From an uncultured Myxococcales bacterium (GTDB lineage: Bacteria > Myxococcota > UBA4151), in contig CAXGWI010000003.1 in the NCBI GenBank assembly GCA_964013405.1, positions 21,889 through 85,888 of the forward strand: 64,000 nucleotides of DNA, in the 5' to 3' direction. Positions 26,152 through 56,400 of this stretch are shown in pieces. Position 1 is the first letter of the stretch. The number at the start of each line of letters is the position of its first letter. Both the position numbers and the translations under genes were made by a program. The notes beneath the pieces are model-generated. The model worked only from the letters and a program-made list of their open reading frames with translations, was not told the DNA's origin and searched no databases.

Positions 26152-26188
26152 GAAAAAAAGAAAAACCGCGAACCTAGATTCGCGGTTT
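26152..26188 (-). terminator. Rho-independent terminator after tRNA-Arg
   Basis: Stem aaaccgcgaa/ttcgcggttt (26163-26188) followed by a T-rich run on the minus strand. Confidence 0.8.
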
Positions 26189-26264
26189 GGTGGGCAGGAC
26201 AGGATTTGAACCTGCGACCCTCGGCTTCGGAGGCCGATGCTCTATCCAGCTGAGCTACCCGCCC
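26188..26264 (-). tRNA. tRNA-Arg(CCG)
   Basis: Reverse complement folds into a cloverleaf: acceptor GGGCGGG/CCTGCCC, anticodon arm TCGGC-CT-CCG-AA-GCCGA, GGTTCAAATCC T-arm, encoded CCA. Confidence 0.97.
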
Positions 26265-26300
26265 GGGCGAGGCCGCATGTAGCGAATGGGCCCGGGCCTG

Positions 26301-26332
26301 AAAAGCAGGAAAGGCGCCAATCGGCGCCTTTC
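26301..26332 (-). terminator. Hairpin/terminator between tRNA-Ala and tRNA-Arg
   Basis: Perfect 10-bp stem gaaaggcgcc-aatc-ggcgcctttc (26309-26332) followed by 'ctgctttt' on the minus strand. Confidence 0.65.
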
Positions 26333-26336
26333 TCCG

Positions 26337-26412
26337 TGGTGGAGGTGAGGGGAGTCGAACCCCTGACCCCTTGAATGCCATTCAAGTACTCTACCAACTG
26401 AGCTACACCCCC
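26337..26412 (-). tRNA. tRNA-Ala(GGC)
   Basis: Acceptor GGGGGTG/CACCTCC with the G3:U70 alanine identity pair; anticodon arm CTTGA-AT-GGC-AT-TCAAG; GGTTCGACTCC; CCA end. Confidence 0.97.
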
Positions 26413-26493: not shown

Positions 26494-27474
26494 ATGGTGT
26501 CATCATACCGAGATAAGCACGGTCGAAGTCTCGAATACCTGAGGGTATCCGTCACAGATCGGTGCAACTTTCGTTGCCCCTACTGTCGACCAGAAACCGG
26601 TGAACTGTATGACCCCCCAGCGGATCATTTAAAGGCCAGCGAAATTGCCCGGGTGGTAAAAACCAGTACTCAACTCGGTGTTCGGGCCGTTCGCTTTACG
26701 GGGGGTGAGCCCCTGCTCCGTCGGGACCTTCCTGAGATCATCGCCGCAGTTCACGGTCTCGGGATCACTGACCTGGCCCTGACCACCAACGCTTGGCGCC
26801 TTGCCCAACGAACGGAAGCCCTTTGGGCCGCCGGACTGAGACGGATCAACGTGAGCCTCGACTCGCTGAGCCCGGAGCGATTCCAGCGCTTGTCGGGGGG
26901 TCTCGATATCACACCGACCCTAGAGGGCATTCACGGGGCCGTGGCCAGGGGCTTTGAGGTCAAAACCAACACGGTGGTCATGGGCGGAGAAAACGATGGC
27001 GAACTGCTTCACCTCGCCCAGTTCGCTTGGGATCTCGGCCTGACGCCACGATTCATCGAGTTGATGCCCATTGGGGCCGGCGCCCTGGCCACCCACCGAA
27101 GAGTGGACGCTCAGCAGATCCTTGGGGCCTTTGATGTCGTGCCCGAATCACCGGATGAAGCTCGGGCCTATGGCCGCGGCCCGGCCGACTACTGGTACCA
27201 CGAGGGCAAGAAACATCAGAAGCTCGGTGTCATCGGCGCAACCACGCGAAACTTTTGCGCTAGCTGCAACCGCGCTCGCCTGACGGCCACCGGCGGTCTT
27301 AGGCCCTGCCTAGCTTCGAATCTAGGCTACGAATTACGACCGCTTCTTCGCCGCGCCTGCGGCGAGGATGAACTCCTTAATGGCATGCTCCTGGCCATGG
27401 GCTTGAAACCGGAAGGCCACCGCTTTGAAGAGGGTTATGCTGGCGAGAACGCCATGCGGGGGATCGGCGGCTAG
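26494..27474 (+). CDS. moaA: GTP 3',8-cyclase (molybdenum cofactor biosynthesis)
   Basis: 'YLRVSVTDRCNFRCPYC' radical SAM motif, 'TGGEP', 'FIELMP', 'FCASCNRARL...PCL', C-terminal 'MRGIGG'. Confidence 0.96.
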   Translation: MVSSYRDKHGRSLEYLRVSVTDRCNFRCPYCRPETGELYDPPADHLKASEIARVVKTSTQLGVRAVRFTGGEPLLRRDLPEIIAAVHGLGITDLALTTNAWRLAQRTEALWAAGLRRINVSLDSLSPERFQRLSGGLDITPTLEGIHGAVARGFEVKTNTVVMGGENDGELLHLAQFAWDLGLTPRFIELMPIGAGALATHRRVDAQQILGAFDVVPESPDEARAYGRGPADYWYHEGKKHQKLGVIGATTRNFCASCNRARLTATGGLRPCLASNLGYELRPLLRRACGEDELLNGMLLAMGLKPEGHRFEEGYAGENAMRGIGG

Positions 27475-28106
27475 CTTCGCCCCCGACGGCGCCCACGACC
27501 CCCCTGGCCGCCCCAGCGCTGTCGCCCTTGCCGAAAGATCACAAAGGTGAGGATCAAAATACCGGCAAGAAAGAGCCACGCGGTGCTGCCACCGTAGGCA
27601 TTGCGTAATTCGGACTCGGTTTTGCGCACCAGGCCATCAAAGTGACTTCCAAAACGCTCCTTAGAGCGGAGGGCGAGGGCGTAGGCCATGGCCGTTTCAC
27701 CCCCACGAATCGCACTATGGATCGCCATCTCTGCGGCCCAGATGTTGTCCGGCTCCAACTCGTAGAGGCTTTGGCCCAGTCGCCGGGCCTCCTTAAACTT
27801 GGTCTCTAAAAACGTGCGCTCCAGGGCAATCCGAAGGCCCCAGCGATTGTCAGCTTTGACCGTCGTCGTCTCAATGACGGCCTTCGCCACACTGCGGGCC
27901 GGCTCCGCTGCGTTGCTCCCGCAATCCTTGATCACTGCCTGATCCCTCAATCGCCAACCGGCAAGACAGTAGTCGATCCAGGCTTCCGAGTTACCACTCT
28001 GTACCTCAAGGAGCAGCGCCGACTCAGACCGCAGGCCGGTCCAATCACCGGGTTCCGTGGGCAAATCCGCCGCTGCGAAAACCAAGAGAAATAGAGGCAT
28101 CATCAT
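27471..28106 (-). CDS. Hypothetical exported helical protein with C-terminal TM and Arg/Gly tail; last gene of the BMC operon
   Basis: ATG overlaps the stop of the BMC-T gene (ATGA 28103-28106); signal peptide; TPR-like helices; TM 'AWLFLAGILILTFVIF'. Confidence 0.65.
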   Translation of the reverse strand: MMMPLFLLVFAAADLPTEPGDWTGLRSESALLLEVQSGNSEAWIDYCLAGWRLRDQAVIKDCGSNAAEPARSVAKAVIETTTVKADNRWGLRIALERTFLETKFKEARRLGQSLYELEPDNIWAAEMAIHSAIRGGETAMAYALALRSKERFGSHFDGLVRKTESELRNAYGGSTAWLFLAGILILTFVIFRQGRQRWGGQGGRGRRRGRS

Positions 28107-28699
28107 CGCTTCTCCGGAGCAAAGAGCGCTTCCCACGCGGGCCCCTCGTCAGGGCGAGCAATGAGTTGGGACTCGAGGAAGCCTGCGCCGGCACTGGCCT
28201 GAAAGTCCAGTGCGGCCACCTCAAGGTCAGCCTGGGCCCCGGTCAGCATGGCGATCCCCTTCCCCCCAATACCCTGCCCAAGGCGGAGGCCTGCCAGGCC
28301 GCACGCCACGGCTTTGAAGGCCGCATCGAGCCCTCGAATTTGACTACAAAGGCTGGCGGTCTCGACAAAGAGCAGAGCCTCATCGACTTCGAAACTCGCC
28401 GTCATCTCACCGGCCAGCCCTGCGACGACCCGAGCATGCAGCGCTTGGAGGACAAAATGATCGACGACCCGCTTTCCGCCGCAATGAAGGGCAGCGTCGC
28501 TGGCCCGCTCAACCGCTTCAACACCCCCGTCGAAGAGAATGAGCATGCGGCCTTGGGAGAAACTCTGAGCACAGAGGAGTCGAACCGTCGCGGCCTTCAT
28601 CAAGCTGTCGATGCATCGGGCTGACCGAGCAAGAGAGTCCAGTTCCAGTCCCCCCACGCATGAAGCCGTCGGCAGGGATTGAGACTGCAGGGGAATCAT
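28103..28699 (-). CDS. BMC-T shell protein (PduT-like tandem domain, divergent)
   Basis: Two BMC-like domains: 'GGLELDSLAR...DSLMKAATVRL...GGVEAVE' and 'LFVET...DAAFKA...LRLGQGIGGKG...IARPD'; ATG overlaps the AldDH stop. Confidence 0.8.
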   Translation of the reverse strand: MIPLQSQSLPTASCVGGLELDSLARSARCIDSLMKAATVRLLCAQSFSQGRMLILFDGGVEAVERASDAALHCGGKRVVDHFVLQALHARVVAGLAGEMTASFEVDEALLFVETASLCSQIRGLDAAFKAVACGLAGLRLGQGIGGKGIAMLTGAQADLEVAALDFQASAGAGFLESQLIARPDEGPAWEALFAPEKR

Positions 28700-30117
28700 C
28701 AGACGATCCGGAACCGATCCTTCAAGGTGCAACGCCGTATACGGGAGAAGGACAGTGCGGTGGTCAGGCCCTCCCCCGTCGGACTTGCGATGGTAAACGA
28801 GGTATGCCCCTCGCCACCGTGACCCAAGCCAGCAAAGTTACTGGCATTTTTGATGTAAATACTGGTGTTGCAGACCCGGGCCATCGCGTGGAGGTTGTCG
28901 AGATTCCGACTCCACATGCTGGCCGTATGCCCATAGCCATGCTCACAGCGCAGCGCACCGTCGATGGCAGCCTGTACATCTGGATAACGAACAATCCCGA
29001 CGATCGGCGTCAGCAGTTCGTGTTGAACGAAAGGATGACTCTCGTCGACGTCGGCGATGATCAGCCGGGTCTGGGCCGGTGCGCGCACGCCGACTGCATC
29101 CAAAATGAAGGCAGCATCTTTGCCGATATACTCACGGTTGACGTGGTTATCTGGCGTGATGATCAGCTGTTCGAGGCGACGGAGGGCATCACCTTTAACG
29201 AGGAATGCCTGACCGGTCGCGACCATTTTGTCTCGAAGGGAGTCGGCGATGGACTCCACGGCCAGCACCTCTTTTTCATCGGTGCAAATGATGTTGTTGT
29301 CGAAGCTTGCGCCCGCGATGATCCCCCGGGCAGCGGCATCGAGGTCGGCTGTCTCGTCGACGACGACGGGCGGGTTTCCTGGTCCCCCTGCGATGCAGCG
29401 CTTGCCACTGGTCATCGCCGCCCGAACAACCGCCCCACCTCCGGTCACAACCACCAGGCGTGTGCCACTATGAGTCATGAGGTTGCCGGCGGAATCAATG
29501 GTGGGCTCGGCGATACACGTTAAGAGATTCCGAGGGCCGCCGACCCCTACAATCGCTCGGTTCAGATCAGCGATAAAGCGAGCCGACAACCGCTTCGCCG
29601 CCGGGTGCACATTAAAGACTGCCGAATTCCCCGCGGCCACAAAGCCCAATCCATTGCAAAGGATGGTTTCCGTCGGGTTCGTGCACGGAGTAATCGCGGC
29701 GATCACCCCATAGGGGGCCCGTTCCTCAAGAGTGAGGCCATGGTCGCCGGTGCGAACCCAAGGGGTGAGGATCTCAGTTCCAGGTGTCTTCGTCGCAACG
29801 AGCCGATTCTTGTGAATCTTGTCTTCCACTCGACCCAGGCCGGTTTCTTGAACCGCGTCCCGGGCGAGGGACTCGAGTTGGTCGAGCGTGCATTTCCGCA
29901 TCGCCCCGACGATCCGTTCTCGGTCCTCTAGACTGAGGGCGACCAACTCCCGCTGGGCCACCGTGGCCGCGGTGATCGCATCATCGAGATCCGAGAACAC
30001 ACCATTGCCACCGGCCACATCCACCGGGACCGGCGCCGCTGAATGGCCGGCGCCGCCTTGGAGGCGAGAAACCACCTGATTGACGATGGCCTCAATGCTT
30101 GCGGAATCTAGGCTCAT
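28699..30117 (-). CDS. BMC-associated CoA-acylating aldehyde dehydrogenase (EutE/PduP family) with N-terminal encapsulation peptide
   Basis: 'ETGLGRVEDKIHKN', 'TPCTNPTET', 'GPGNPPVVVDETAD', catalytic 'NNIICTDEK', 'TIASPTGEG'; N-terminal helix 'SIEAIVNQVVSRL' plus linker. Confidence 0.93.
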   Translation of the reverse strand: MSLDSASIEAIVNQVVSRLQGGAGHSAAPVPVDVAGGNGVFSDLDDAITAATVAQRELVALSLEDRERIVGAMRKCTLDQLESLARDAVQETGLGRVEDKIHKNRLVATKTPGTEILTPWVRTGDHGLTLEERAPYGVIAAITPCTNPTETILCNGLGFVAAGNSAVFNVHPAAKRLSARFIADLNRAIVGVGGPRNLLTCIAEPTIDSAGNLMTHSGTRLVVVTGGGAVVRAAMTSGKRCIAGGPGNPPVVVDETADLDAAARGIIAGASFDNNIICTDEKEVLAVESIADSLRDKMVATGQAFLVKGDALRRLEQLIITPDNHVNREYIGKDAAFILDAVGVRAPAQTRLIIADVDESHPFVQHELLTPIVGIVRYPDVQAAIDGALRCEHGYGHTASMWSRNLDNLHAMARVCNTSIYIKNASNFAGLGHGGEGHTSFTIASPTGEGLTTALSFSRIRRCTLKDRFRIV

Positions 30118-30420
30118 CTAGGCCTCCCCAACGCCTTTGGCATAGGTGGTTTGCCCATCTCGGTCGACCACATCGACGATGGCCATGATCACCGCATCGA
30201 CAGGACGGTCTTTGGTCACCGCCGTCTGCCGAGCAGAGGATCCGGAGGCAAAGAGAACCAGCTCCCCGACCCCGCTGCCAACTGCGTCTGCGGCAACGAT
30301 GGGATTGCCCGCCGCCTCCCCGGCTTCATCCGTAGGCGCGATCAACATGAGCCGAAGACCATCCACGGCCGCCTCTTTGCGGGTCGAGACCACGGTCCCG
30401 ACCACTCGGGCTAATTTCAT
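30118..30420 (-). CDS. BMC-P vertex protein (EutN/CcmL family)
   Basis: '[15 protein letters not shown]...[20 protein letters not shown]...[11 protein letters not shown]'. Confidence 0.95.
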
Positions 30421-30710
30421 TTGCCCGTCTTAGGCGCCCGGCCCAGGGGAAGGACCTCATCCACGTTGCCATGGGGCCGCGGAATGATGTGAACGCTGAC
30501 CAACTCGCCAACCCGCTCTGCGGCTCGGCTGCCGGCTTCCGTGGCTGCCCGAACAGCGGCCACATCGCCACGGACCACAGCGGTCACGAAGCCTCCGCCA
30601 ATCTTCTCGTAGCCAACCAATTCCACACGAGCGGCTTTCACCATGGCATCGCTGGCTTCCACCATGCCCACAAATCCGCGTGTCTCAATCATGCCAAGGG
30701 CATCGGACAT
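30417..30710 (-). CDS. BMC-H hexamer shell protein
   Basis: '[24 protein letters not shown]...[16 protein letters not shown]...HIIPRPH'. Confidence 0.97.
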
Positions 30711-30756
30711 CTCAGCTTCTCCTCTTCGCCGACAGGTGTCGGTCCTGTCATCTCAG

Positions 30757-31377
30757 TTATTCATCTACGCCAGTGACGCTTTCGAGGGCGTCGATCGCGG
30801 CCTTGGCCGCCACATCAATTTCCGCTTCCGTCCCACTCAAGTAGAGCCGGCCGAAGGCACCGTAGGGGCGGACCTCAATAAGTTTCACATTCGCCGCCTT
30901 CTCCGCCTCGTTGGCAGCGAAAGCGATATAAGCAGCTGGCTTACACTCGAGGATAAAGAGGCTCTCCCCTGGCACGATCATCGAACCGAAGCGGAACTTG
31001 TTGATGACCTGACTTTGGTAGGGAGAAACAGAGCGAATGATCTCATTGGAGACCACTTTCGGTTTGATCCGCTGGTCTTCTTGTAGATCAAGGCCGCCAA
31101 GGATGGCTTTACCTGCCGCTTTGACCTCGCCGATGTCCTCGTGGTGCATCTCGAGGGAGCCGTAGGCCCGCTCAACCACCTGCATGGCCGGCTGACAGGC
31201 CGTGGCCTTCAGTGCTGTGTCAGTCACTCGATTGATGGCCATCCCAGGGGCGATCTCCACCCAGAGGGACGCCACGTAGGGAACGGGCAAGAATGCCCGA
31301 GATGTGGTCCCCACGTAGCCGGCCAACTGGGGCTGCATCGAATCGAGTAGGATAAAAGTCCTCAGGGTAGTGCTCAA
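30757..31377 (-). CDS. BMC-T double-stacking permuted shell protein (CcmP/CsoS1D type)
   Basis: '[15 protein letters not shown]', '[14 protein letters not shown]', 'VVERAYG', 'AANEAEKAA', '[10 protein letters not shown]'; TTG start with GGAGG RBS. Confidence 0.93.
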
Positions 31378-31473: not shown

Positions 31474-31800
31474 TTGAGCGACGAGAACAACCCATTGGAT
31501 GACCAACAGATCGAAGCGATGTTGGCCCCCCTACGGAAGCCAACAAAGCCCCGGTCTCGCCTGCGCCCGCTCGTGATTGGGCTCAGCTTTATGGCGGTGA
31601 TGCTCATCGCCCTTGTCCTGAGTCTACCGAAAAAAAGAACCCGCACGACCCAAGACCGGGGCGGCCCCGTGGCCACCTGTGGTAACGGTAAAGTTGAACC
31701 AGGCGAGGACTGCGAACCCCCGCTGGGAACCAATTGTGGCGCCGACTGCCTAGACCAAACGCCGGCGCCGCAGGAGGAACAACCCGCAGAGCAGCCATAG
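31474..31800 (+). CDS. Small membrane protein with a myxobacterial Cys-rich repeat
   Basis: GGAGG RBS before TTG; one TM; 'CGNGKVEPGEDCE...CGADC'; divergent from the BMC operon. Confidence 0.7.
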   Translation: MSDENNPLDDQQIEAMLAPLRKPTKPRSRLRPLVIGLSFMAVMLIALVLSLPKKRTRTTQDRGGPVATCGNGKVEPGEDCEPPLGTNCGADCLDQTPAPQEEQPAEQP

Positions 31801-34800
31801 GCCCAGATCCCATGGGCTGGTACCAGCACAACCACAGGGCGATTCCGGTACCGCAAACTCACCGACACCCGAGTTGGAGGTTTGCTCCGCTCGGACGGTG
31901 ATCATTACCGTGTCCGTGCCGGGCTCGAAGCCCTCCTCGGTGATGGTGAGTTGAAAGCCATAGCTTCCGCCTTCAGTGACCGTGAAACTGGGTCGTAGCG
32001 TGTCCGCAGCTTCGATCTCCACACGGGGGCCTTCAACCTGCTCCCACAGGAAGGCTGCAGTTCCGTCACTACCCCGCTGATAAGTACTCGCTGTGCCATC
32101 GAGAGCCACGGTCCGCTGGCCCTCTTCCGAAGACAAACTGACCCGGGTGTCTGGACCCGCATCCACGATGGGGCCGGCATAACGAACCCGGATCGTCACC
32201 GAGTCATCGGCCGATAGGCTTTCACCAGCATCATCGGTGGCCGTCACGGTCAACTTGAAGGTGTAGTCGCCGGGATAGCGTAAATCCACGGTGGTGATCG
32301 CCTGGGCGGAGGAGGCGATCTCGACGGGCTCAGGCCCTTCATCGAGGCGCCACGCATAACTCAAGGTGCCGTTAAAGGGATCCCGACTGTTGCTCCCATC
32401 CAGCTGGACCAAACCCGGATCCACCTCTTGATCAGGCCCTGCATCGGCAATGGGTCCTTCCGGAATCTCAGTGGCCACCGTGATGGTCCAGATTTGCGTA
32501 TCGACGAGGGCACCGTCGGTCACCTCGATCACCACTCGATATTCGCTTCCTGCCTCCGACAAACTCGGCGTCCAGCTGATCAACTGGTTCTCGTCGATGG
32601 TCATGGTTTCCGGGCTGTCCTTCAACTCGTAAAGCAGAGGGTCTCCATCGCTGTCCGAAGCCACCACTTGGTAGCTGTAAGGCAGGGTTGGGTAGGCTTC
32701 TGTTGGCGGCTGGCTCGTAAACTGAGGTGGTGCATTTTCCCCCTCATCGATCACGGCCAACTCGTATTCTTGCGTTGCGCTCCCACCGTTACCGTCGCTG
32801 ACCTGAACGACGACCGTTTGAAAGCCGAGATCGAGACGGGTGGGTCGCCAACGAATCTCGCCCGTCTCTTCGTCGATGGTCATTCCTGGCGGGTTCAGAG
32901 CGAGGCTGAAGACCAACTCGTCATCAGAGTCTGGGTCCGTGGCCCGGGCCGTGTATTCGTACAACTCCCCAATGCGGGCGATCGTTTCTGGGCTGCTGGT
33001 AAAGGCCGGCAGAGCGTTGGGCGCAGGCAGACTAACCACCACCTCCCAGGCTAGCTCGCTTCGGTTCTCTTCAGAGTCGGTGGCCTCCAATTTGAAACTG
33101 TAGCGTCCCACACCAGTGGGAACCCAGCTCAGCGTGTTGCAGCGGCTATCGGAGCATTGAGCGCTCGGCGGCCCCCGCACCAGTTCGACGGTGAAGGGAT
33201 CTCCTTCGCCATCAAAAGCACGAGGTGAGAAGTCGTAGCGCTCACCAACAACCCCCTCAGCCGGCGGCTCAGAACCAAAAACTGGCGCCATATTGACCGC
33301 CGGATTCAGAACGGAAAGTAGTGTCCGCTGCTCATCGAACAGACCGTTCACGTCGTCCACCCTCACGGTAAAGACGACGGACTCCCCGCCCAGACCCAGG
33401 GGCACGTTCCACCGCAAGACGCCGCTGGATGGATCAATGGACATCCCAGCCGGGAAGTCCCCCTCCACCAACGAGAACGTCATTCGGTCGCCATCAGCAT
33501 CACTGGCTTCGACCTCGTAGAGGTAAACCTCACCAGCAACCACCGAGGCCTCGGGGAAACTGGTAATTCGAGGCGCTCGGTTGCCTGGGTCCTCGTCCAC
33601 ACCCAGTTCCCAACTCTGCCGGTCAACGGCCCCCTGGCTGTCATAGACCGTCAGAACGACGAGGAAGCTTCTGTTGCCCTGCTCGTCGGTGGGAACCCAC
33701 TGGATGCGACCCGTTTGACTGTCGATCGTCATTCCCTCGGGAGCCTCGTCCAGATCCCAGCTAAAGACATCACCCTCATCCGGGTCATCCGCTCTGGGGG
33801 AATAGCTGTAACTTTGACGGGCCTGGGCAGTGAGTCTCGGTTCCGACTCGATTGAGGGCGGCCGATTGGGCACCTCCACCTCCCAACTGAGTGTATCCGT
33901 GCCTCCCCGGCCATCACTCACCTCCACCGAAAACTGATGCCTGCGACCGAGGTCACCAAGGGCTGGCGTCCACGTGAGCCGTTGGTCCTCGAGAAGCGCT
34001 GCGGCTGGTACTGTGACGAGGCGCCAAGTCAGGGGATCACCGTCGGGGTCGATCGCCCGTAGAAAAGTGGACATCTCGGTGGCCAGGAAGACCGAGGTAC
34101 GGGGCACCGTCGTGATCGCTGGCGGATTGTTACCACCTACGGGCGGTGACACGACCACTTCCCACCGCTGCCGGTCACTGGCCTGACCATCAGAGACTTC
34201 GATCTGGAAGACGTGCTCACCCCGATCCCCAGCGCTCGGAATCCAGAGAAGTGTCCCACTGCTCGCGTTGATCTCCGCCCCTCTTGGGCTTTCAAGCAAG
34301 CGCCAACTCAAGACATCATCGTTGGGATCAAAGGCCAGTGCATCGTAGCGATAAGCTTGATTGGCGACGGCCGCCGTCCCCGGTTCAGACCGGATCTCGG
34401 GGGGCTCGTTGAGGGGTTCTTCAGGCACCACGCTCACATTCCAGTTTTGCCGATGTACACCACCCCGCCCATCACTCAACTCGATGGCAAAACTCACCGT
34501 CCTGCCTAAATCGATATCGCTAGGGGTCCAGACCAACAGACCACTGGCGGGGTTGAGCACGGCCGAGGGGGGACCGGCGGTCAAACGCCAGGTCAAGCGG
34601 TCCTCATCCTCATCCTCACCCCGGGCATCGTAGCGATAGGACTGCCCTTCAGTAACCCGGTCTTGGGGCTCGCTAATGATCACCGGCGGGTTGTTGGCCG
34701 GGGCTCCATCGGTCACCGTCAAGGAAAGCGCTTGTGTGTCGGCCAACTCGCCCGGATCGACCACGACGAGAATGCAAGCAATGGTTTGCCCAATAAGTGC

Positions 34801-37800
34801 ATTGCTGGGCGTCCAAGTGACCATGCCCGTGTTCGAGTTCACCTCGAAGGGGCACTCCTCATCATCGACGAAACCGAAGAAGACAGGATCGCCGTCCGGA
34901 TCTTCCGCAGTCGCCCGATACTCAAACTGCTCGCCGGCCGTCGCCTGGTTCGGCGGACTCGACGTAAACTGAGGCGCTGTGTTCGCAGCCGGCCGCCCCA
35001 CACCAATTTGGAAGACCTGAGCGTCCCAAAGCACGCCGTCCCAGACTGCGAGGGTCACCGAAACGGAACGCCCATCAAGTTCCTCTCCCGGGGTCCAGGT
35101 CACCAACCCCGTGGCCGCGTCGACCTCCATCCCCTCGGGAGGAGACTGCTCTTCGGGTAGAACCCAAAACAAGGGGTCTCCATCGGGGTCATTCGCCTCG
35201 GCCGCATAACGGTATTCGACGCCTACCTCGGCTTCGGTGGGTGGCTCGGTGATAATCACCGGTGCTCGGTTTTGCGGGGGCGGCGGCTCACCGGTGACCT
35301 CGACGGTCCAACTCTGCTCGGCCGTGCCATCATTCTCATCCCGAACCTCAATTCGGAAGCTGAAGCTTTGTCCCTGCTGACCTTCGGTGGGTGTCCAGCG
35401 CAACGTACCGGCCTGATTGTCCATCGTCGCGCCAACCGGTCCCCCGAGAAGGGCGTAGGTCATTCGGTCACGGTCGAGATCGAAGGCTTGAATCTGATAT
35501 TGGTAGAGCAGATCGGGAGCGGCCGCGAGGCCCGGCGAAGAGGTGATCACCGGCGGTTGGTTGGCATCCCCTTCGCCCACCGTTACGGTCCAAGCCTGGT
35601 TCACCGAGCCACCGTTGCCGTCTCGCACAACAATCTCGAAGGCGAAACTATCGCCTTCGGCGCCTTCGGGCACCAACCAGGCGATACCATTGACGGGTCC
35701 CTGTTGAACAAAGCGTGCGCCGTTGGGACCACTGAGCAACTCATAGCTCAAGTTATCGCCGTCGGGGTCTGAGGCGGTGACATTGTAAGCGTAGAGTTGA
35801 CCGGCGCTGCCAACCAGGCTGGGGGATGAGGTGATCACCGGGTCGCTATTTTGATTCGCTCCCTCCACCACCCGGAAGGAGATGGTTTGCAAATCCACCA
35901 AGTCACCGGTGTCCACCACACCCAATAAGCAACTGACTGTGGTGTCGACAAACGGAGCTGAGGGCATCCACGTCAGTCGACCCGTCATCATGTTGATGAC
36001 CATGTCTTCAGGGCAGCGGTCCTCATCGATAAAGTAGCGCAGCGCATCGCCATCTGGATCCTCAGCAACGACGGTGTAGACGTATTGTTCGCCCAACGGG
36101 ACCTCGATGGGCCAGGCAGAGGTGATCGTGGGTGGCCCGTTGGCGTTGACGCCCACGCCCACATCGAAGATCTGTGCATCGAAGAGCCCGCCCTCATCGG
36201 CAGCGACCACGACCACTCGATGGGCTTCGTCACCTTGGTCCGCCGTCGGCGTCCAAGTGATCTCACCGGTTCGATTGTCGATCTCCATGCCATCGGGGGG
36301 CGGGTTGTCATCGGGAAAGATAAAGAGGATGGTATCCCCTTCGGGGTCTTCTGCGGTGACCTGGTAAGTATAGAGTTCACCCACTTGAGCGGACGTCACC
36401 GGCACCGACGTGATTGCGGGGGCTCGATTGGCAATATTTTGGTCTACAAACACCTGCCACCCTTGGCTGGACTCCGCCCCCTGAGCATCACGAATCACCA
36501 ACTCAAAGGCGTGGCTTCGGCCGCCTTCCGCCTGACCTGGCGTCCAGGTGAGCAAACCGCCTTCGAAGCGTGCTCCTGCTGGCGCCGTGGTGAGGTGCAT
36601 GGTGACAATGCCCCCCTCCGGATCATTCCCCTGGGGTCGGTACACATACTCCTCATCGACAAAGGCCGTGCCTTCCGGCTCGCTTGTGAAGACGGGGGGC
36701 TCGTTGGCCACCACCACCTCCACATCAATATCGATGACTTGCTGCGCCGTGGCGCCGCGACTATCGGTCAACTCCAAGGTCATGCGGCGCCGCTGGCCAC
36801 CATCCTGCGGCCCGGGAGTCCACGTGACCCGGTCGTCTCGGAGCTCCACGCCGGCGGGACCGCCCACCAAACGCAAGGTGACTGAATCCCCATCGGGGTC
36901 ATCGTAGGTCACGTCGTAGCGATAAGCTTCACCGACCGTCGCCGACTGACTGGGTACAGAGGTGAACACCGGCGGGTTATTGCCTGGATCCACGCTGGCA
37001 ACGACGAGCCACTGCTGCCGGGTACTGCCACCTTGCCCATCGGAGACCTCCACAACGAAGGTTCGGGCCACACCGTCATCGGCCTCTGTGGGCGTCCACC
37101 GGACCTGTCGATCCTCTAGGGTTGCCCCCGCTGGGCCGGTCAAAAGGGCGTACTGTAGTGGGTCCCCATCCCCATCGGTGGCCACCACATCATAGGTGTA
37201 GAGCTGGTCGATCTGAGCCATGGTGTTGGGACTCGATGTGATCACCGGATCCAAGTTGTCCGGGGCCTCATTACTCACCAGCACGTTCCACTCGTGCAAC
37301 AGCGACGCCCCCCGACTATCGGAGATGCGCACACGGAAGAACTGCAGCGTACCACCAAGCCCTTCACCCGGGGTCCATGTCAGCCGGCCATTGGGGTCCA
37401 TGGTGGTCCCTTCCGGCGCGGTCAACAGGTCATAACTAATGGCGTCGCCATCGGGGTCGGTGGCGAGGATCACATACTGATAGAGCAGACCAACATAGGC
37501 CTCTGTGTTGGGATTCGAGGTCACGAGAGGCCGGTTGTTCGGTTCCTCATCGACCTCGACAAACCACGTCTGGTTGTTCCTGAAATTATCACCATCTTCG
37601 GCCGTGAGAATGAACTGGTAACTGTTGCCCGCCTGTCCCGGCGTCGGGTTCCAGCGAACCAGACCAGAGTTCGCCATCACACTGGAGCCCGTTGGGCCTT
37701 GGTCGAGGCTGAAAACAACGGGGGTGCCCTCCGGGTCCACTGCGTCGGCATCGTAACTATAGGTTCCGCCCACAACCGCCACGAGGGGGGGCTGCGTGGT

Positions 37801-39363
37801 AAATTGGGGTGCCTGATTGGGGGGGGGCGGCTCCGGCTGAACGGTGACGTTAAAGACCTGGACATTGAACCCATTGTTGGCGTCGGTCGCTCGAATTCGG
37901 CAGGAGAAGACCTCGCCTACCATATCGATCGTCGGGGTGTAGCGAAACACCCCCGTCCCCGCGTCGATGATGGATCCATTCGGGCAGTTGTTTCGACTCA
38001 AACTGTAGACGATCGCATCCCCATCCGGATCGACCGCATCCGCGTCGTAGACGTACTGGACCCCGGCGATCGCCGTGGTGGGTGCGTTACTCGTAAAGAC
38101 TGGCGGCGAATTCGGCGGCGGTGCCCCCTCGCCCACCGCAACCTCCCAAAAGTGGGTCACTGCCCCCCCTTGGCTGTCCCGCACGATCACACGGAAGGAG
38201 TGGGTCTCCCCCTCGTGGTCGACCGTGGGCGTCCAAGTCACAAGGCCGGTCACTCGGCTGACGACCACCCCATCGGGATTATTGCGCCCAATGTAGGTCA
38301 GCGTATCCCCATCGGGATCGATGGCGACGATCTGGTAGCTGTACTGCTCACCAACGGTGGCTGTTGTTGGGGGCTGCGACGTCACCTCTGGTGGGCCATT
38401 GGGCCGGTCGATGCTGATGGTGATCGTTTGGTCGTCACTCAGTGGCGGCACGCCATCATCCGTGACCGTGAAGGTCACTTGGTGCTCCCCCTCCTGGCCT
38501 GGCGTCGGTGTCCATCGAAACAAGCCGGTGGCCGTATTGAACTCAGCACCAGCCAACGGGCTCATGCTGAATGTCAACGGGTCATCATCTTCATCAAGGG
38601 CCTGGACCGTGAACTGAACCAGAGTGCCGGTGAGACCGGCCCGATCGTCCAGGTCGATGATCTCCGGCGGATGGTTCACATCCTGGGGGTCGTAGGTCCA
38701 AGCCACCGCATAGTTGGTGACCGAATTCTCGATCTCACCGAAGAAGCTGCCGACCCCATCGAGTCGGTCGGAGGCCTCAAGACCGGCGCTAATCGTCTGG
38801 CCACTCCCCCCAGGAATCTGGCGATAGTTGAAGTTGACGATATTGGGTTGCGTAAGACGAAGTTGGGCTTCGACGGCACCGATCTCGTTCCTGTTGAAAA
38901 ACGGCGCTCGCCAGGTGACGAGAAACTCATCGCCATCCATATGGACCCACACGCCATTCTCAAGTTGACCGCCGTTGATCGAGGGATTGAGATCCGTAAA
39001 GATGGGCGCAAGCATGCCCATGGGCGCGGCATTGTCCGGCAACTCCTGCCGGGGCGTGTAGTTCACCGAGGCCGTCGGAACGAACGTCACCCAGCCATTC
39101 GAGCACACGAAAATCGAGTTGTAAGTCTCACCGAAAAACTCAAAGCTAAAGCCGGGCGGGAAGTCGATCTCCCGGGTCTGGTCATCACCAAAGTCTAGAT
39201 TCGTCGCGCCTCGGCCTGGCTCGGTCCACTCGAAGGCCGGACCATCGGGCTCTTGGTTATCAACCCAAGTGTAACCACCGGAATTTTCGCCGCCGCCGCC
39301 ACGCCCTGCAAAAGCAGAGGTTGCGACAAAAGAGGTAAGAACTATGAGGGCTCGCAAACTCAT
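31750..39363 (-). CDS. Giant surface protein: N-terminal nidogen-like head, about 22 putative-Ig/cadherin-like repeats, two PKD-like domains, MYXO-CTERM-like tail
   Basis: Signal peptide; 22 units of about 95 aa starting 'N.xP.(I/F)(T/S)' with 'A.DPDGD.L' and 'G...WTP'; two 'P..DAGPD' units; C-terminal 'CGCAGTSPWDLGLWLLCGLFLLRRRRLV'. Confidence 0.9.
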   Translation of the reverse strand: MSLRALIVLTSFVATSAFAGRGGGGENSGGYTWVDNQEPDGPAFEWTEPGRGATNLDFGDDQTREIDFPPGFSFEFFGETYNSIFVCSNGWVTFVPTASVNYTPRQELPDNAAPMGMLAPIFTDLNPSINGGQLENGVWVHMDGDEFLVTWRAPFFNRNEIGAVEAQLRLTQPNIVNFNYRQIPGGSGQTISAGLEASDRLDGVGSFFGEIENSVTNYAVAWTYDPQDVNHPPEIIDLDDRAGLTGTLVQFTVQALDEDDDPLTFSMSPLAGAEFNTATGLFRWTPTPGQEGEHQVTFTVTDDGVPPLSDDQTITISIDRPNGPPEVTSQPPTTATVGEQYSYQIVAIDPDGDTLTYIGRNNPDGVVVSRVTGLVTWTPTVDHEGETHSFRVIVRDSQGGAVTHFWEVAVGEGAPPPNSPPVFTSNAPTTAIAGVQYVYDADAVDPDGDAIVYSLSRNNCPNGSIIDAGTGVFRYTPTIDMVGEVFSCRIRATDANNGFNVQVFNVTVQPEPPPPNQAPQFTTQPPLVAVVGGTYSYDADAVDPEGTPVVFSLDQGPTGSSVMANSGLVRWNPTPGQAGNSYQFILTAEDGDNFRNNQTWFVEVDEEPNNRPLVTSNPNTEAYVGLLYQYVILATDPDGDAISYDLLTAPEGTTMDPNGRLTWTPGEGLGGTLQFFRVRISDSRGASLLHEWNVLVSNEAPDNLDPVITSSPNTMAQIDQLYTYDVVATDGDGDPLQYALLTGPAGATLEDRQVRWTPTEADDGVARTFVVEVSDGQGGSTRQQWLVVASVDPGNNPPVFTSVPSQSATVGEAYRYDVTYDDPDGDSVTLRLVGGPAGVELRDDRVTWTPGPQDGGQRRRMTLELTDSRGATAQQVIDIDVEVVVANEPPVFTSEPEGTAFVDEEYVYRPQGNDPEGGIVTMHLTTAPAGARFEGGLLTWTPGQAEGGRSHAFELVIRDAQGAESSQGWQVFVDQNIANRAPAITSVPVTSAQVGELYTYQVTAEDPEGDTILFIFPDDNPPPDGMEIDNRTGEITWTPTADQGDEAHRVVVVAADEGGLFDAQIFDVGVGVNANGPPTITSAWPIEVPLGEQYVYTVVAEDPDGDALRYFIDEDRCPEDMVINMMTGRLTWMPSAPFVDTTVSCLLGVVDTGDLVDLQTISFRVVEGANQNSDPVITSSPSLVGSAGQLYAYNVTASDPDGDNLSYELLSGPNGARFVQQGPVNGIAWLVPEGAEGDSFAFEIVVRDGNGGSVNQAWTVTVGEGDANQPPVITSSPGLAAAPDLLYQYQIQAFDLDRDRMTYALLGGPVGATMDNQAGTLRWTPTEGQQGQSFSFRIEVRDENDGTAEQSWTVEVTGEPPPPQNRAPVIITEPPTEAEVGVEYRYAAEANDPDGDPLFWVLPEEQSPPEGMEVDAATGLVTWTPGEELDGRSVSVTLAVWDGVLWDAQVFQIGVGRPAANTAPQFTSSPPNQATAGEQFEYRATAEDPDGDPVFFGFVDDEECPFEVNSNTGMVTWTPSNALIGQTIACILVVVDPGELADTQALSLTVTDGAPANNPPVIISEPQDRVTEGQSYRYDARGEDEDEDRLTWRLTAGPPSAVLNPASGLLVWTPSDIDLGRTVSFAIELSDGRGGVHRQNWNVSVVPEEPLNEPPEIRSEPGTAAVANQAYRYDALAFDPNDDVLSWRLLESPRGAEINASSGTLLWIPSAGDRGEHVFQIEVSDGQASDRQRWEVVVSPPVGGNNPPAITTVPRTSVFLATEMSTFLRAIDPDGDPLTWRLVTVPAAALLEDQRLTWTPALGDLGRRHQFSVEVSDGRGGTDTLSWEVEVPNRPPSIESEPRLTAQARQSYSYSPRADDPDEGDVFSWDLDEAPEGMTIDSQTGRIQWVPTDEQGNRSFLVVLTVYDSQGAVDRQSWELGVDEDPGNRAPRITSFPEASVVAGEVYLYEVEASDADGDRMTFSLVEGDFPAGMSIDPSSGVLRWNVPLGLGGESVVFTVRVDDVNGLFDEQRTLLSVLNPAVNMAPVFGSEPPAEGVVGERYDFSPRAFDGEGDPFTVELVRGPPSAQCSDSRCNTLSWVPTGVGRYSFKLEATDSEENRSELAWEVVVSLPAPNALPAFTSSPETIARIGELYEYTARATDPDSDDELVFSLALNPPGMTIDEETGEIRWRPTRLDLGFQTVVVQVSDGNGGSATQEYELAVIDEGENAPPQFTSQPPTEAYPTLPYSYQVVASDSDGDPLLYELKDSPETMTIDENQLISWTPSLSEAGSEYRVVIEVTDGALVDTQIWTITVATEIPEGPIADAGPDQEVDPGLVQLDGSNSRDPFNGTLSYAWRLDEGPEPVEIASSAQAITTVDLRYPGDYTFKLTVTATDDAGESLSADDSVTIRVRYAGPIVDAGPDTRVSLSSEEGQRTVALDGTASTYQRGSDGTAAFLWEQVEGPRVEIEAADTLRPSFTVTEGGSYGFQLTITEEGFEPGTDTVMITVRAEQTSNSGVGEFAVPESPCGCAGTSPWDLGLWLLCGLFLLRRRRLV

Positions 39364-51282: not shown

Positions 51283-53340
51283 CTAAGAACTCAGGAGGCT
51301 CAATTCTTTCAACTGACGGAGTTCCTCCCGCAGCTTTGCTGCTTCCTCGAAGTCGAGTTCGGCCGCGGCCCGACGCATCGATCGCTCGACGGACTTGATC
51401 TTCTGACGCATCTCGCCGGCGGGCAAGAAGCCCGCAGACTGCAAAAACGTCAGCAGGTCGTCCTGGCCCGGCGGCGAGGCCCCCTCAGCCCGATGGCTCT
51501 GGCGGTGTTTTGCGACTCTGCGATCCACATCGCGATCTTCGGAACGGCGATCCCTGGGCATCTCCAGAAGCTCCCGGACCGTGGATTTAGGGGTGATTCC
51601 ATGCCGCTCATTGTGGGCCGCCTGAACCTGCCGACGACGATGGGTCTCTGTGATCACTGCCTTGATCGCGACCGTCTCCTGCTCGGCGTAGAGGAGGGCC
51701 CGACCGTTCACGTTCCGAGCGGCCCGGCCGACGGTTTGGATGAGACTGCGCTCGTTGCGCAAAAAACCCGACCGGTCCGCATCAAGAACGGCCACCAGCC
51801 CGACTTCTGGTAGATCCAAGCCCTCCCGCAGCAAGTTGATCCCGATCAGCACATCGTAGACCCCCTGCCGGAGTTCGGCGAGCAACTCGATACGTTCTAG
51901 GGTGTCCACATCCGCGTGCAAATAGCGGCAGCGTATCCCCAACTCCTCAAAGTATTCGGCGAGGTCCTCCGCCATTTTTTTGGTGAGCGTCGTGACAAGA
52001 ACCCGCAGGCCTTGCCCGGTTGTCTTACGGATCTCATGGACGAGGTCGTCCACTTGCCCTCGGACCGGGCGGATCTCAATCTCAGGATCCAACAGTCCCG
52101 TGGGACGGATGAGTTGCTCCACCACCTCCCCATGGGTTTGCCCTAACTCGTAGTCGCCCGGGGTGGCGGACACATAGATGGCCTGATGACGGCGCTCCAC
52201 CCACTCGTCAAAGCGAAGAGGACGGTTATCGAGGGCACTTGGAAGGCGAAAGCCATGATCCACCAATGTTTCTTTGCGGGCCCGATCACCACGATACATC
52301 CCCCGCACCTGTCCGATGGTGACGTGGCTTTCATCCACAAAGGTGATCACGTCGTCGGGAAAATAGTCGATAAGAGTGGGCGGTGGCTCGCCTTCGGCCC
52401 GGCCACTCAGCCAGCGGGAGTAGTTCTCGATCCCAGAGCACGTCCCAAGGGTGTCAAGCAGTTCAAGGTCGTAGCGGGTCCGTTGGTCTAAGCGCTGCAA
52501 CTCCAATAACTTCCCTTGGCTCTTGAAGGCCTCCAGGCGTGTCTGCAACTCCTGCCGAATCCCCCGCAGTGCTCGCTTCATTTGGTCCGCGGGCAGTACA
52601 TAATGACTGCCGGGATAAACAACCGCTGACTCCAGATCCTCAAGAACACGCCCCGTCAGGGCATCGACCCGCTGGATCCGCTCCAGTTCATCACCGAAGA
52701 AACTGAAGCGCAGGGCCCGGTTCTGTTCGTGGGCTGGATACACCTCGACCAGATCACCTCGGACCCGAAAAGTCCCCCGATCAAAGGCCGTATCGTTGCG
52801 GTCGTAGAGGGCAGCGACAAGCCGCTCCATAAAGGCCCTCGGCTCCAGACTTTGCCCCACCGAGAGGGAGATCATCATTTGGCGCCAGAAGTCCGGCGTA
52901 CCGATTCCATAGATACAGGAGACTGAAGCCACCACCACCACGTCTCGACGCTCCAACAGAGCCCGAGTTGCGCGGTGACGCATCCGGTCGATCTCATCGT
53001 TGATCGACGAATCCTTCTCCACATAGGTGTCCGTGGTCGGGACGTAGGCTTCGGGTTGGTAATAATCGTAATAGGAGACGAAATACTCCACCGCCATTTC
53101 GGGCAATAGGCTGGAGAGTTCTTGGAACAGCTGGCCCGCAAGCGTCTTGTTATGGGCCAGGACCAGTGCCGGCCGCTTCGACTGGGCGATCACATGGGCC
53201 ATGGTGAATGTTTTGCCTGAGCCGGTCACCCCCAGCAGGACCTGGTCGGGCCGCCCCTCGCACAGGCCGCGACAGAGGGCTTCGATGGCCTGAGGCTGGT
53301 CCCCGGTCGGCGTATAAGGGCTGTCCACCCGAAAGGTCAC
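51283..53340 (-). CDS. uvrB: Excinuclease ABC subunit B
   Basis: 'PTGDQPQAI', 'GVTGSGKT', 'FVSYYDYYQPEAY', 'DESH', 'INLLREGLDLPEV', C-terminal UVR 'LDFEEAAKLR'; GTG 53340 after GGAGG. Confidence 0.97.
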   Translation of the reverse strand: MTFRVDSPYTPTGDQPQAIEALCRGLCEGRPDQVLLGVTGSGKTFTMAHVIAQSKRPALVLAHNKTLAGQLFQELSSLLPEMAVEYFVSYYDYYQPEAYVPTTDTYVEKDSSINDEIDRMRHRATRALLERRDVVVVASVSCIYGIGTPDFWRQMMISLSVGQSLEPRAFMERLVAALYDRNDTAFDRGTFRVRGDLVEVYPAHEQNRALRFSFFGDELERIQRVDALTGRVLEDLESAVVYPGSHYVLPADQMKRALRGIRQELQTRLEAFKSQGKLLELQRLDQRTRYDLELLDTLGTCSGIENYSRWLSGRAEGEPPPTLIDYFPDDVITFVDESHVTIGQVRGMYRGDRARKETLVDHGFRLPSALDNRPLRFDEWVERRHQAIYVSATPGDYELGQTHGEVVEQLIRPTGLLDPEIEIRPVRGQVDDLVHEIRKTTGQGLRVLVTTLTKKMAEDLAEYFEELGIRCRYLHADVDTLERIELLAELRQGVYDVLIGINLLREGLDLPEVGLVAVLDADRSGFLRNERSLIQTVGRAARNVNGRALLYAEQETVAIKAVITETHRRRQVQAAHNERHGITPKSTVRELLEMPRDRRSEDRDVDRRVAKHRQSHRAEGASPPGQDDLLTFLQSAGFLPAGEMRQKIKSVERSMRRAAAELDFEEAAKLREELRQLKELSLLSS

Positions 53341-53433
53341 AGGAACCTCCAATCCATCCATCGCTTGTCTGACGTGTGCGATCAACTAGGCTTTACCCCC
53401 AAACGGTTGTAACCGGTAACGGGGAGTTTCAAG

Positions 53434-56400
53434 TTGACCGGCCGTGCCCTGATGCTGAGCTTGCTCGCAATCCTGCCGAGTCAGGCGATGGCTCTGTCCA
53501 CAGAAGCGGTCCCTCGTTGGGCTCTCAACAAGCTCAATGAAGCCCTCGCCGGCACCGTGACAAGCCGCGGCATTCGCTTCGACACCCAAACCGGCTTGAC
53601 CCTCACGGGAGTCCAGGTCACCGCCCCCAACGGACGACTGGTCTTACAGGCCCAGCGACTTGTCGCCGAGGTCAGCATCGGCAACCTCCTGGCCGATGTG
53701 GTCAGCATCGATGCGATCGAGATCACCGGACTTAAGATGAGCCTACGGGAAAACGCCCAGGGCGAATTCGATCTGGTCCAGGCTTTTATGCCGAAAGAGG
53801 CGAGTGAGGACAGCGGTGGGGGTGGCGGCGGGGTCCGAATTCAGCGCCTGAGCATCAGCAACAGTGAGTTCGAGTTGCGCATTCCAAGCGCGTCGATGGA
53901 GATCAAAGATCTCAACATCTCGGGGCGGCTCAGCGTGACCAATACGCTCACTGCACGACTTCGACTCAACAGTGGAGCCATCCAATTCCGGCAACCCAGC
54001 CGAGGCGATGCCAACCTAGCGACAGAATTCCGTGGCCTCATCATCAAGGAATTCCGGCTAGACGACCAACACATCCGCATCCGCCAAGGCTCCCTGCGCG
54101 TCGACACCGACCACCGGATCGGCCTCTCGGGGAAAATCAATACAGGGGCTGATCGGATCGCTATGGATTTCGACGGCCGCATCCCTCCCCGCTGGTTAAA
54201 CCGAAGCCTTGGCAGCGGTGATGCCGTCCCCCCCATGGGTGCCATTCGCACGAAAGGCAGAGTCAGAGGGGTGATGAGTGACCCGACCATCGACTTCGAC
54301 CTTTCGACCACCAACGTCGTGTTGCCTTCGGGGGCACCACGACTCACAACCTTCTCGGCCCAAGGGAAGTACACCAGCACCAGGCTCCTTCTCAGCCAGG
54401 TGCAGGCCAGCACACTCGGTGGCCAACTTCGCCTTTCGGGCCGTATGGCGATGGACGATCGCTACCGCAGCCGCATGACGGGCCAACTGAAAAATATCAG
54501 CTTGGCCGCGGCCCATGAGAGTCTCGCCGAGTATGGCGGCCGCTACACCGGCGCAATCAGCCTAGAAGGCCCCATGCTCTTCGACGATGCCCAGCCCCTT
54601 CAGATCGATCTCGATGGTAGAGTCACATCTTTCCTGATCCCGAGCCTTGGGCGTCAAGATGTCAGCCTGAAGGGCGGTATCAGCCAGGGGGAGGCGATCA
54701 CGCTCAAACCAACCACCCTGGTGATCGGCAAAAGCACCGCAAGCCTGAATGGACCGGTGTATCCCAAGCTCAGGCTGGACTGGAGCCTGCAGTCAAAGCG
54801 GCTCAAGAGGCTTCTTAGGGCCCTGGATATCGATGACTATATCCCCCAACAAGCCACGGCATCGGGGCGCTTGGTTTTGGAACCCCGGTTCCGTCTTCGC
54901 TTTGCGATCAACGCCAATCGGTTCAACCTTTTCGATATGCCCCTGGGCCCCACGCGCACCCAAGGCGTCATGACCGATGATTTTCTGACCCTCAACCAGC
55001 TCACATCCACGATCTCGGGGGGTGCACTTCAGGCGAAGAACCTCACCATGCGCCTTGCTGACCCCACCTCGATGAAGGGTGAGATCAAGGTCGAAGCCAT
55101 GGCGATTCCCGGCGCCGAGGGGCTTGTCACATTGCAGCTAAAATCACCGGATTTCGATCGATGGGATGGTGATGTCTACGTGGAAGACTTGGTGGCCGGC
55201 GGCATGGCCTTGGGCAGCCTCGACTTCAACCTGCGCTTCAACGGCGAGCGCGTCGACTTGCGGGTGCGTGACTGGGAGGACGGACTGGGTGTTCTCAACG
55301 GTGATCTTGGCCTGGAGTTGGCAACCAATCGTCCCGATGGAGGCCTCACGCTCTACCTCGATCAAACCGGGTTACAAATGCTTGGTGGCGATGTTCTTGA
55401 GGGGCGAGCGAAGCTGCTCCTGCAACCCAAGGGAACCCTCGACCAGATCGCGGCCCGGGCAATTCTTGATCTGGATGGTCTTCGTGTTGGGGGCGTTCCC
55501 CTCGGCCAAGGAAACATGGAATTCTCCGCAACCCCCAACCATCTGGGGGGCATTATCAGACTCAGAGGGAATGGCCGAGCCCAAGGCTCCCTTCGACTCA
55601 CCGACGGCTTTGAAAAACTCGACCTGCAGCTGCGCTGGTCAGGGCTTGAGTTGGCTTCGCTCCCCACTGGCGTTGACGGACTCCGTGGCAAGGCAGACCT
55701 GCATGCTCGGCTCACCGGCCCCCTGACGGCGCCGCTGGGCGAGGCGAACCTGCGACTCCGGCACGTGCGTATCGGTGGCCAAACCCTCGGCACGGGCAAT
55801 GGTGGTCTCCGCTTGGTGCTGGATCCGGGACGACTCAAAGCAGATCTTGAGTTGATCGGATGGCTTCAAGGGACTCTGACCAGTGGTTGGCCGGATTTAG
55901 AGGACATGGACCTCACCGCTAGCCTGCAAGCCAACACATTGGAAGACTTGGCGCCGGCGCTGCGCATGACCGGAAGCACGGCCGCTTTGGATGCGAAGAT
56001 ACGCGTCCTGCGTCGAGGCGGCTCTCCCAGTGGGCAAATTCTAATCAATCGGCTGCAAATCTCAAACCCGGTCTTACCCGGCCAGGAACTAGAGAACGCC
56101 GGCGATATTATCCTCGGCTACGGTGGTGGTCGGGTTCGTGTGGAAAAAATGGGCATCAAAATGGCACAAGGCCAACTGTCGGTCCAAGGCTTCGTCGAAC
56201 CAGGAGATGAGGATGGCCGAGTCAATCTTCGGCTGGAAGGGGCCTTCCCGATGGAGGTGCTTCAAGCTCTCGACCCCGGCTTCTCCTTGGCCCGGGGACG
56301 CATCGCTCTCCAATGCCTCGCCCGCGGAAAACTCTACGACAATCCGAACCTCCAAGTCATGGTTCAACCGGAGCCGGGCACCACCATCATCCATAGCGCT

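Follow-up and report, generated by a model that had tools for sequence, protein, structure and literature searches.

A candidate deoxyribose-degrading role for a type I HO microcompartment in an uncultured myxobacterium

What does a bacterial microcompartment (BMC) process when its locus encodes no enzyme that could supply it with an aldehyde? The question is raised by the window analyzed here, a stretch of 64,000 nucleotides from an uncultured Myxococcales bacterium (assembly GCA_964013405.1, contig CAXGWI010000003.1, positions 21,889 to 85,888), which carries at 28103-31377, all on the minus strand, genes for the shell proteins BMC-Tdp, BMC-H, BMC-P as well as BMC-Ts and for a CoA-acylating aldehyde dehydrogenase (AldDH). 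The original prediction, whose five genes, order and strand we confirmed, had described the system as an orphan of unknown substrate without a signature enzyme. This description holds for the locus alone and not for the genome (3.9 Mb in 244 contigs, 94% complete; G000 in our sample), which has, in addition to the main locus on contig C3, a satellite of organelle genes on C1 and, on C6, a deoxyribose-phosphate aldolase (DeoC, or DERA) bearing a targeting-type helix. We propose, with a probability of roughly 0.75, that the organelle is a dispersed metabolosome of the SPU type that degrades deoxyribose from scavenged deoxynucleosides, with its parts encoded at these three sites. Taken alone the locus is unremarkable, a further type I main locus of the HO class; its value lies in the native job of the HO organelle, which the sections of Sutter et al. 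(2021, PMC8217296) drawn on here term enigmatic and leave unresolved, and whose shell is the main structural model, the one most used for structure and engineering.

DeoC as candidate cargo

The genome's only DeoC heads a nucleoside run on C6 (39012-43558), in which deoC is followed by genes for thymidine phosphorylase, a NupC-family transporter (419 bits, below the cut-off of 442) and purine nucleoside phosphorylase (PNP). The protein passes the TIGR00126 model (255.5 bits, cut-off 117.3), its D149, K211 and K240 match the catalytic residues of the E. coli enzyme, and it carries about 60 extra N-terminal residues, for which structure prediction gives a helix at 2-21 (predicted local distance difference test, pLDDT, 84-91) and a loose linker of low confidence ahead of the barrel. 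In a profile scan over the N-termini of 3144 genes called with a simple gene finder, this N-terminus ranks first with a profile built from the DeoC of other families and twelfth with one derived from AldDH. The AldDH of the main locus in turn ranks first of the 3144 with a profile from the AldDH N-termini of other lineages; it has an amphipathic N-terminal segment common to 34 aligned homologs, with an encapsulation-peptide-like helix at about residues 3-20, and the encapsulation peptide originally claimed for it is thus upheld as a sequence pattern. A check on hydrophobic moment did not separate targeting helices (0.39-0.45) from an ordinary first helix (0.48), and a "combined" N-terminal profile that mixed two registers was disregarded.

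Across the phylum, the helix on DeoC is associated with the presence of a shell. Among 201 Myxococcota genomes, 73 hold a matching AldDH and 75 hold BMC-P matches (these tallies, like that for DeoC, include G180, on which no claim rests). DeoC N-termini were read in 110 genomes, namely 61 of the 74 shell-bearing genomes with DeoC, those left out being G180 and 12 of the 13 SPU genomes of family f3, and 49 of the 115 shell-less ones, hand-picked across families from the matches listed; G028 and G116 were placed in the shell-bearing group on BMC-P evidence. With a helix called at a leave-one-family-out profile score of at least 5, it is present in 59/61 shell-bearing against 6/49 shell-less genomes. 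An earlier profile threshold (score 8) had separated the groups poorly (16/59 versus 4/51), AldDH and DeoC helices being different, and was superseded by the leave-one-family-out profile; the independent, AldDH-derived profile reaches an area under the curve of 0.86 on the DeoC N-termini. Inside family f5 the scores are 7-30 with shells (n=8) versus -4 or lower without (n=5), and all five genomes of this genome's own family retain the helix, with scores of 14-21. Helices of the same kind are found in four further HO genomes, two of type II and two from the Kofleriaceae (the family of H. ochraceum), on a DeoC encoded beside thymidine phosphorylase or deoB. The linker is cysteine-rich in 52/61 shell-bearing versus 1/49 shell-less genomes.

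Some individual cases are worth recording. The two shell-bearing genomes that miss the helix are G098, with an RpiB-DeoC fusion, and G090 (L279, L280, L161), a genome of about 0.6 Mb (87% complete) in which an HO-type main locus and an aldolase-bearing satellite are retained and DeoC has no extension; a microcompartment in so strongly reduced a genome is unusual. In G011 (L122; 92% complete) DeoC has the full helix and the cysteine linker, and the genome gave no BMC-P and a single weak BMC match, a combination that may reflect missing contigs or recent loss. The cysteine-rich linker may bind metal.

Gene order is stronger evidence than this association of helix and shell. The commonest neighbour of deoC is a class II aldolase gene, and the pair recurs in 10 of 12 SPU genomes of family f3. 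Both genes are listed for 59 HO-type genomes: in 23 of these deoC comes after the satellite aldolase with the matches no more than 500 bp apart, in 29 the two are within 8 kb, and the linkage recurs in nine of 22 families; the order BMC-P, BMC-P, aldolase, deoC is seen in 13 of the 16 satellite regions read, which were chosen mostly for that linkage. In G117 these four genes form a single run with those for thymidine phosphorylase, NupC and PNP, and G079, G064 and G084 have the same run minus nupC. Of the AldDH relatives from GTDB (80 kept of 594, among the matches listed), 52 show the order Tdp-H-P-AldDH; rpiB and deoC are part of the locus in 19, of which 11 are ordered rpiB-deoC-Tdp-H-P-AldDH. 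Literature searches on H. ochraceum and Myxococcota microcompartments, from whose reach subscription papers such as Lassila 2014 were excluded, returned no paper on the linkage of deoC to the satellite.

Several observations weigh against DeoC as cargo, some of them specific to this lineage. In this genome and its family deoC is unlinked to shell genes, so that the two halves of the proposed system stand apart; the cysteine-rich linker is missing, and in its place (L092:9013-9200) stands a charged stretch that includes a short predicted helix (32-40); and with the AldDH-derived profile the family's DeoC is weak, scoring 6.8 here and negative in three of four relatives. More generally, DeoC is near-universal (189/201 genomes), a good helix is retained in six shell-less genomes, and in family f10 many large genomes without shell genes (L163-L178 and related) have a decayed amphipathic one, as though left over from a lost organelle, these mostly scoring 4 or lower (19/23). 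Since shell-less genomes have good or decayed helices, the helix can persist after the shell is gone. The phylogenetically independent test had too little power: on the DeoC tree, four supported contrasts gave 1.8 agreeing and 0 opposing (p 0.5). DeoB, the mutase of the pathway, was not found in the five family genomes. Finally, the sections of Dwyer et al. (2024, PMC11585597) used here place DERA only in SPU loci and hold no mention of Haliangium. The DeoC linkers of G057 and G077 are likewise without cysteines.

The main locus and its class

The genes of the main locus, together with a sixth that is coupled to them, are the following.

30757..31377, minus strand: BMC-Tdp, 206 aa; PF00936; 5V74_A8 at E 6.5e-84 and 283.7 bits versus 227.2 bits for 5V76; HO-5816 type
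30417..30710, minus strand: BMC-H, 97 aa; PF00936 at 104 bits; 5DJB at E 2.9e-46; HO-5815 type, main hexamer
30118..30420, minus strand: BMC-P, 100 aa; PF03319; 5V74_A1 at E 5e-29; vertex pentamer of the Hoch_5814 type
28699..30117, minus strand: CoA-acylating AldDH, 472 aa; NF011927 at 613.7 bits (cut-off 403)
28103..28699, minus strand: BMC-Ts, two BMC domains; 5DIH (Hoch_5812) at E 4.8e-20; single-layer trimer of the Hoch_5812 type
27471..28106, minus strand: sixth gene, no Pfam or NCBIfam family; stop-start-coupled to BMC-Ts

For each of the four shell genes the best match among natural solved structures is an H. ochraceum protein, a weak one in the case of BMC-Ts. The assertion that the shell is very similar to that of H. 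ochraceum accordingly stands for BMC-H, with 77 of 94 aligned residues identical to 5DJB, and for BMC-Tdp, and fails for the divergent BMC-Ts. BMC-Tdp, which starts at a TTG with a GGAGG element upstream, would form a double-stacking trimer with a large gated pore, and for BMC-Ts the ATG at 28699, overlapping the AldDH stop (TGATG), is the more likely start rather than the TTG at 28732. BMC-Ts is without a pore cysteine of the PduT type, judged by what we take to be the PduT motif. C278 of AldDH, the predicted catalytic residue, is invariant in 34/34 aligned homologs. Family scans of the locus confirmed that it has no aldehyde-producing enzyme, alcohol dehydrogenase, phosphotransacylase (PTAC), regulator or transporter, as had been stated from the outset.

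A search of the genome found the satellite parts that an HO-type assignment predicts: on C1 (G000 ~53150-54320), two further BMC-P genes are followed by the genome's only class II aldolase. This pair and the main-locus BMC-P account for the three PF03319 matches in the genome, and its four PF00936 matches all lie in the main locus, which has a single BMC-H and one BMC-Ts. This layout of main locus and satellite fits the published definition (PMC8217296, supplementary file 4), and by content and layout the five genes represent a main locus of HO type I. In the sections of that work consulted, the HO class comprises 41 loci, 30 of them of type I, in which the main locus has the shell genes and AldDH and the satellite two BMC-P genes and usually a PF00596 aldolase (24/30 loci). 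Likewise, the main locus here consists of shell genes and an AldDH with the peptide-like N-terminus, the BMC-P triplet is split as one on C3 and two on C1, and a PF00596 aldolase sits at the satellite. Departures from the HO pattern are that no second, satellite BMC-Tdp was found in this 94% complete assembly (a single BMC-Tdp match is present in 57/61 HO-type genomes, and one intact match in family relatives), that BMC-Ts is divergent, that the satellite is led by a GltJ-like gene and that an EutBC module was not found in this genome. H. ochraceum itself is listed as having a metabolosome with an incomplete core in the parts of Axen (2014, PMC4207490) drawn on, and the three supplements of that paper that were searched contain no Haliangium rows. 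Three genomes, G028 (L209 region), G036 and G097, have 6-7 BMC-P matches instead of 3, perhaps marking a second compartment or gene type.

The AldDH ties the HO class to SPU systems. Sutter et al. (PMC8217296, in the sections cited) place the HO AldDH beside those of SPU5 and SPU7; in our tree (FastTree only, 101 sequences chosen by likeness to the query, midpoint root) the window's AldDH falls in a 58-row HO group (Shimodaira-Hasegawa, SH, support 97) that holds three SPU loci, inside an 86-row HO+SPU group (SH 98), apart from 11 PVM AldDHs (SH 100) and from EutE. With SPU systems, chiefly SPU5 and SPU7, this genome further shares a helix-extended DeoC with intact catalytic residues together with an acylating AldDH in its repertoire, a BMC-P triplet and a BMC-Tdp without PTAC. 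In contrast to SPU loci, deoC belongs to a nucleoside operon on a separate contig and does not lie beside shell genes, the class II aldolase has no targeting tail, and the only RpiB, in a fabF-rpiB-glyA housekeeping context, has no evident extension. According to supplementary file 4 of PMC8217296, as far as drawn on, SPU5 has no RpiB and has a class II aldolase, and SPU7 has its DeoC at a satellite site. The original prediction had said that it would be refuted if the shell proteins clustered with a characterized type whose signature enzyme lay elsewhere in the genome, and much of this was found: a candidate signature enzyme, DeoC, on C6, and an AldDH that groups with SPU-locus enzymes.

Proposed pathway and alternative explanations

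In the proposed pathway, deoxyribose 5-phosphate would be converted to glyceraldehyde 3-phosphate and acetyl-CoA, with helix-targeted DeoC releasing acetaldehyde and the acylating AldDH consuming it. The SPU scheme, the activity of DERA on deoxyribose 5-phosphate and its helical extension are described in the portions of Dwyer et al. (PMC11585597) drawn on, which also report that PTAC-less SPU types carry BMC-Tdp. Since no PTAC, acetate kinase or targeted alcohol dehydrogenase was found, CoA, acetyl-CoA and NAD(H) must cross the shell if the pathway operates, plausibly via the BMC-Tdp pore, as suggested for those SPU types (PMC11585597). The genome search for PTAC, acetate kinase and Pta returned none of them. 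Each step of the pathway in this organism is one that we infer from sequence. The part of DeoB may be played by a mutase of the PGM family, which we take to include enzymes with pentomutase activity; a literature search found nothing on this point. Three further PGM/PMM-family genes are present in this genome, and one of them, on C6, is 44-47% identical to the PGM-family mutase encoded two genes after deoC in G181 and G146.

A deoxyribose reading was proposed in 2021 for "some" HO genomes, which in the cited sections hold a PF01791 enzyme elsewhere, in some cases with an encapsulation-peptide-like extension (PMC8217296); the N-termini compared here would extend it to nearly all genomes read. 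The sections used of a more recent preprint (Du et al. 2025, PMC12747264), which deals with SPU loci in other lineages of Myxococcota, do not mention Haliangium. The suggestion that the organelle handles aldehydes from prey or sugar degradation would thus narrow to acetaldehyde from deoxyribose, and its sugar part finds no support as regards fucose and rhamnose.

The latter sugars are central to an alternative that assigns the signature role to the class II aldolase of the satellite, which would cleave fuculose or rhamnulose 1-phosphate to supply lactaldehyde, as happens in PVM compartments, and that makes DeoC cytosolic or secondary. The gene for this aldolase lies together with two BMC-P genes here and close to BMC-P in 29 of the 30 closest loci, the enzyme retains E71, H90 and H92, plus H154 in this genome, and the PVM signature enzyme is itself a class II aldolase (PMC4594438, in the sections drawn on); the two systems also have in common an acylating AldDH with an N-terminal helix and several BMC-P. 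However, the PVM enzymes are distant, at 37-46% identity for the AldDHs, which form the separate clade noted above, and 29-32% for the aldolases, whose C-terminal targeting tail is absent here; PVM loci moreover have acetate kinase and three BMC-H. The entry enzymes were not found either: this genome gave no fucI/P/U and no rhaA/B/D/M/T match, and its FucK match resembles glycerol kinase. Fucose isomerase was found in 1/201 genomes, a shell-less one, RhaA in 0/201, and RhaI in 0/5 family genomes. On balance we regard a PVM-like role as very unlikely. Both aldolases could instead be cargo, the class II enzyme cleaving 5-deoxyribulose or ribulose 1-phosphate and the shell acting as a general sink for nucleoside-sugar aldehydes. 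Such a role would suit the habitual pairing of this gene with deoC, in f3 SPU genomes as elsewhere, and a fold that is equidistant from YgbL, FucA and 5-deoxyribulose-phosphate aldolase (6BTG/6BTD); the ribulose-1-phosphate aldolase model gives 98 bits, a value well short of its cut-off of 300, and the protein reaches no family cut-off. The isomerase required, MtnA, was not found in this genome, four family relatives or three f19 genomes, and because the family gave no match for it a role for the aldolase in a dihydroxyacetone phosphate (DHAP) shunt has lost support; several genomes, moreover, pair MtnA with another, more distant class II aldolase. The satellite enzymes form an HO-specific group, mostly without a targeting tail, in which the motif ANHDGN is invariant (36/36) and the third zinc position is His in 16/36 and Asn in 20/36 homologs, a pattern that fits a weakened or non-catalytic role. 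Two catalytic cargoes seem unlikely to us. On the class-wide reading given below, the satellite aldolase may help in packing, comparable in this to the inactive RpiB of SPU; a predicted complex of DeoC with this aldolase (score 0.01, mark 0.32) is evidence neither way.

A third possibility dispenses with a dedicated substrate: shell and AldDH would constitute a general aldehyde-detoxifying compartment fed by diffusion, with the DeoC helix as a relic or oligomerization element. It draws on the AldDH being the only enzyme in the main locus, on the survival of helices in some shell-less genomes and on a family that has neither the cysteine-rich linker nor the linkage of deoC to the satellite. It is at odds with the retention of high-scoring helices in every family genome, as against the mostly low scores of shell-less f10, and with the recurrence of the deoC-satellite linkage in nine families, and we hold it to be highly improbable. 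As for other known types, ethanolamine ammonia-lyase EutBC, which would mark an EUT system, was not found (no eutB/C/L match in this genome; EutB in 0/5 family genomes), and neither a diol dehydratase nor a glycyl radical enzyme is present in the three loci read, no genome-wide search for these having been run.

Returning to a deoxyribose-degrading organelle, we lean, with less assurance than for this genome, towards viewing the whole HO class as an organelle for scavenging DNA that is widespread in Myxococcota. On this view an SPU system would have been broken into the main locus and a run of BMC-P, BMC-P, aldolase, deoC, nucleoside phosphorylase and transporter genes, split further in some lineages, with the DeoC helix decaying after loss of the shell. 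If this is true, HO and SPU would become one, the view that only SPU loci hold DERA would have to be broadened, and many myxobacteria would use DNA of prey or detritus as a compartmentalized carbon source. The question is directly testable, for DeoC is named as cargo, deoxyribose 5-phosphate as substrate and thymidine or DNA as growth condition.

Neighbouring genes and other matches

At the satellite, a GltJ/AgmX-like gene (L001:10325-12301) stops 5 bases before the first BMC-P gene. Of the 16 regions read, 10 have a GltJ-like match upstream of the satellite, directly adjacent in this genome's family, these domains having many paralogs; a tie through this gene between the organelle and the predators' envelope machinery seems quite unlikely. 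After the C1 aldolase comes an open reading frame (L001:8437-9093; about 210 aa) that belongs to no Pfam or NCBIfam family and that occupies this place in G019 too and not in G010. At the main locus, the sixth gene overlaps the BMC-Ts stop and follows BMC-Ts in the family relatives G019, G010 and G027; it was found at none of the 80 more distant AldDH loci, among the GTDB matches listed, and is probably a lineage-specific neighbour, not an organelle part.

Some matches elsewhere in the genome were examined and set aside. The Pta match resembles the C-terminal domain of malic enzyme, and the FucK assignment above was made in the same way, by reading the sequence. An iron alcohol dehydrogenase on C27 was considered as cargo; it did not come up among the top matches of the targeting scan, and an aldehyde dehydrogenase of its own lies next to it. 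The top match of the C-terminal scan, a phosphomannomutase on C12 (13966-15327), was taken to end in the ordinary last helix of its family, a feature presumably normal there, and not in a targeting peptide.

A promoter scan gave nothing above chance. Three short contigs in one marine metatranscriptome match the AldDH at no less than 99% identity, for which DNA carry-over is possible, and DNA of the lineage is present in marine metagenome contigs, also at at least 99% identity (run X1, possibly the source of the genome). The locus is flanked by unrelated genes, MoaA and a large surface protein with Ig repeats. The latter, upstream of the operon (31750-39363, minus strand; 2537 aa), has many Ig-like repeats and a C-terminal anchor of myxobacterial type, and just past moaA lie tRNA-Arg(CCG) and tRNA-Ala(GGC) (26188-26412, minus strand).

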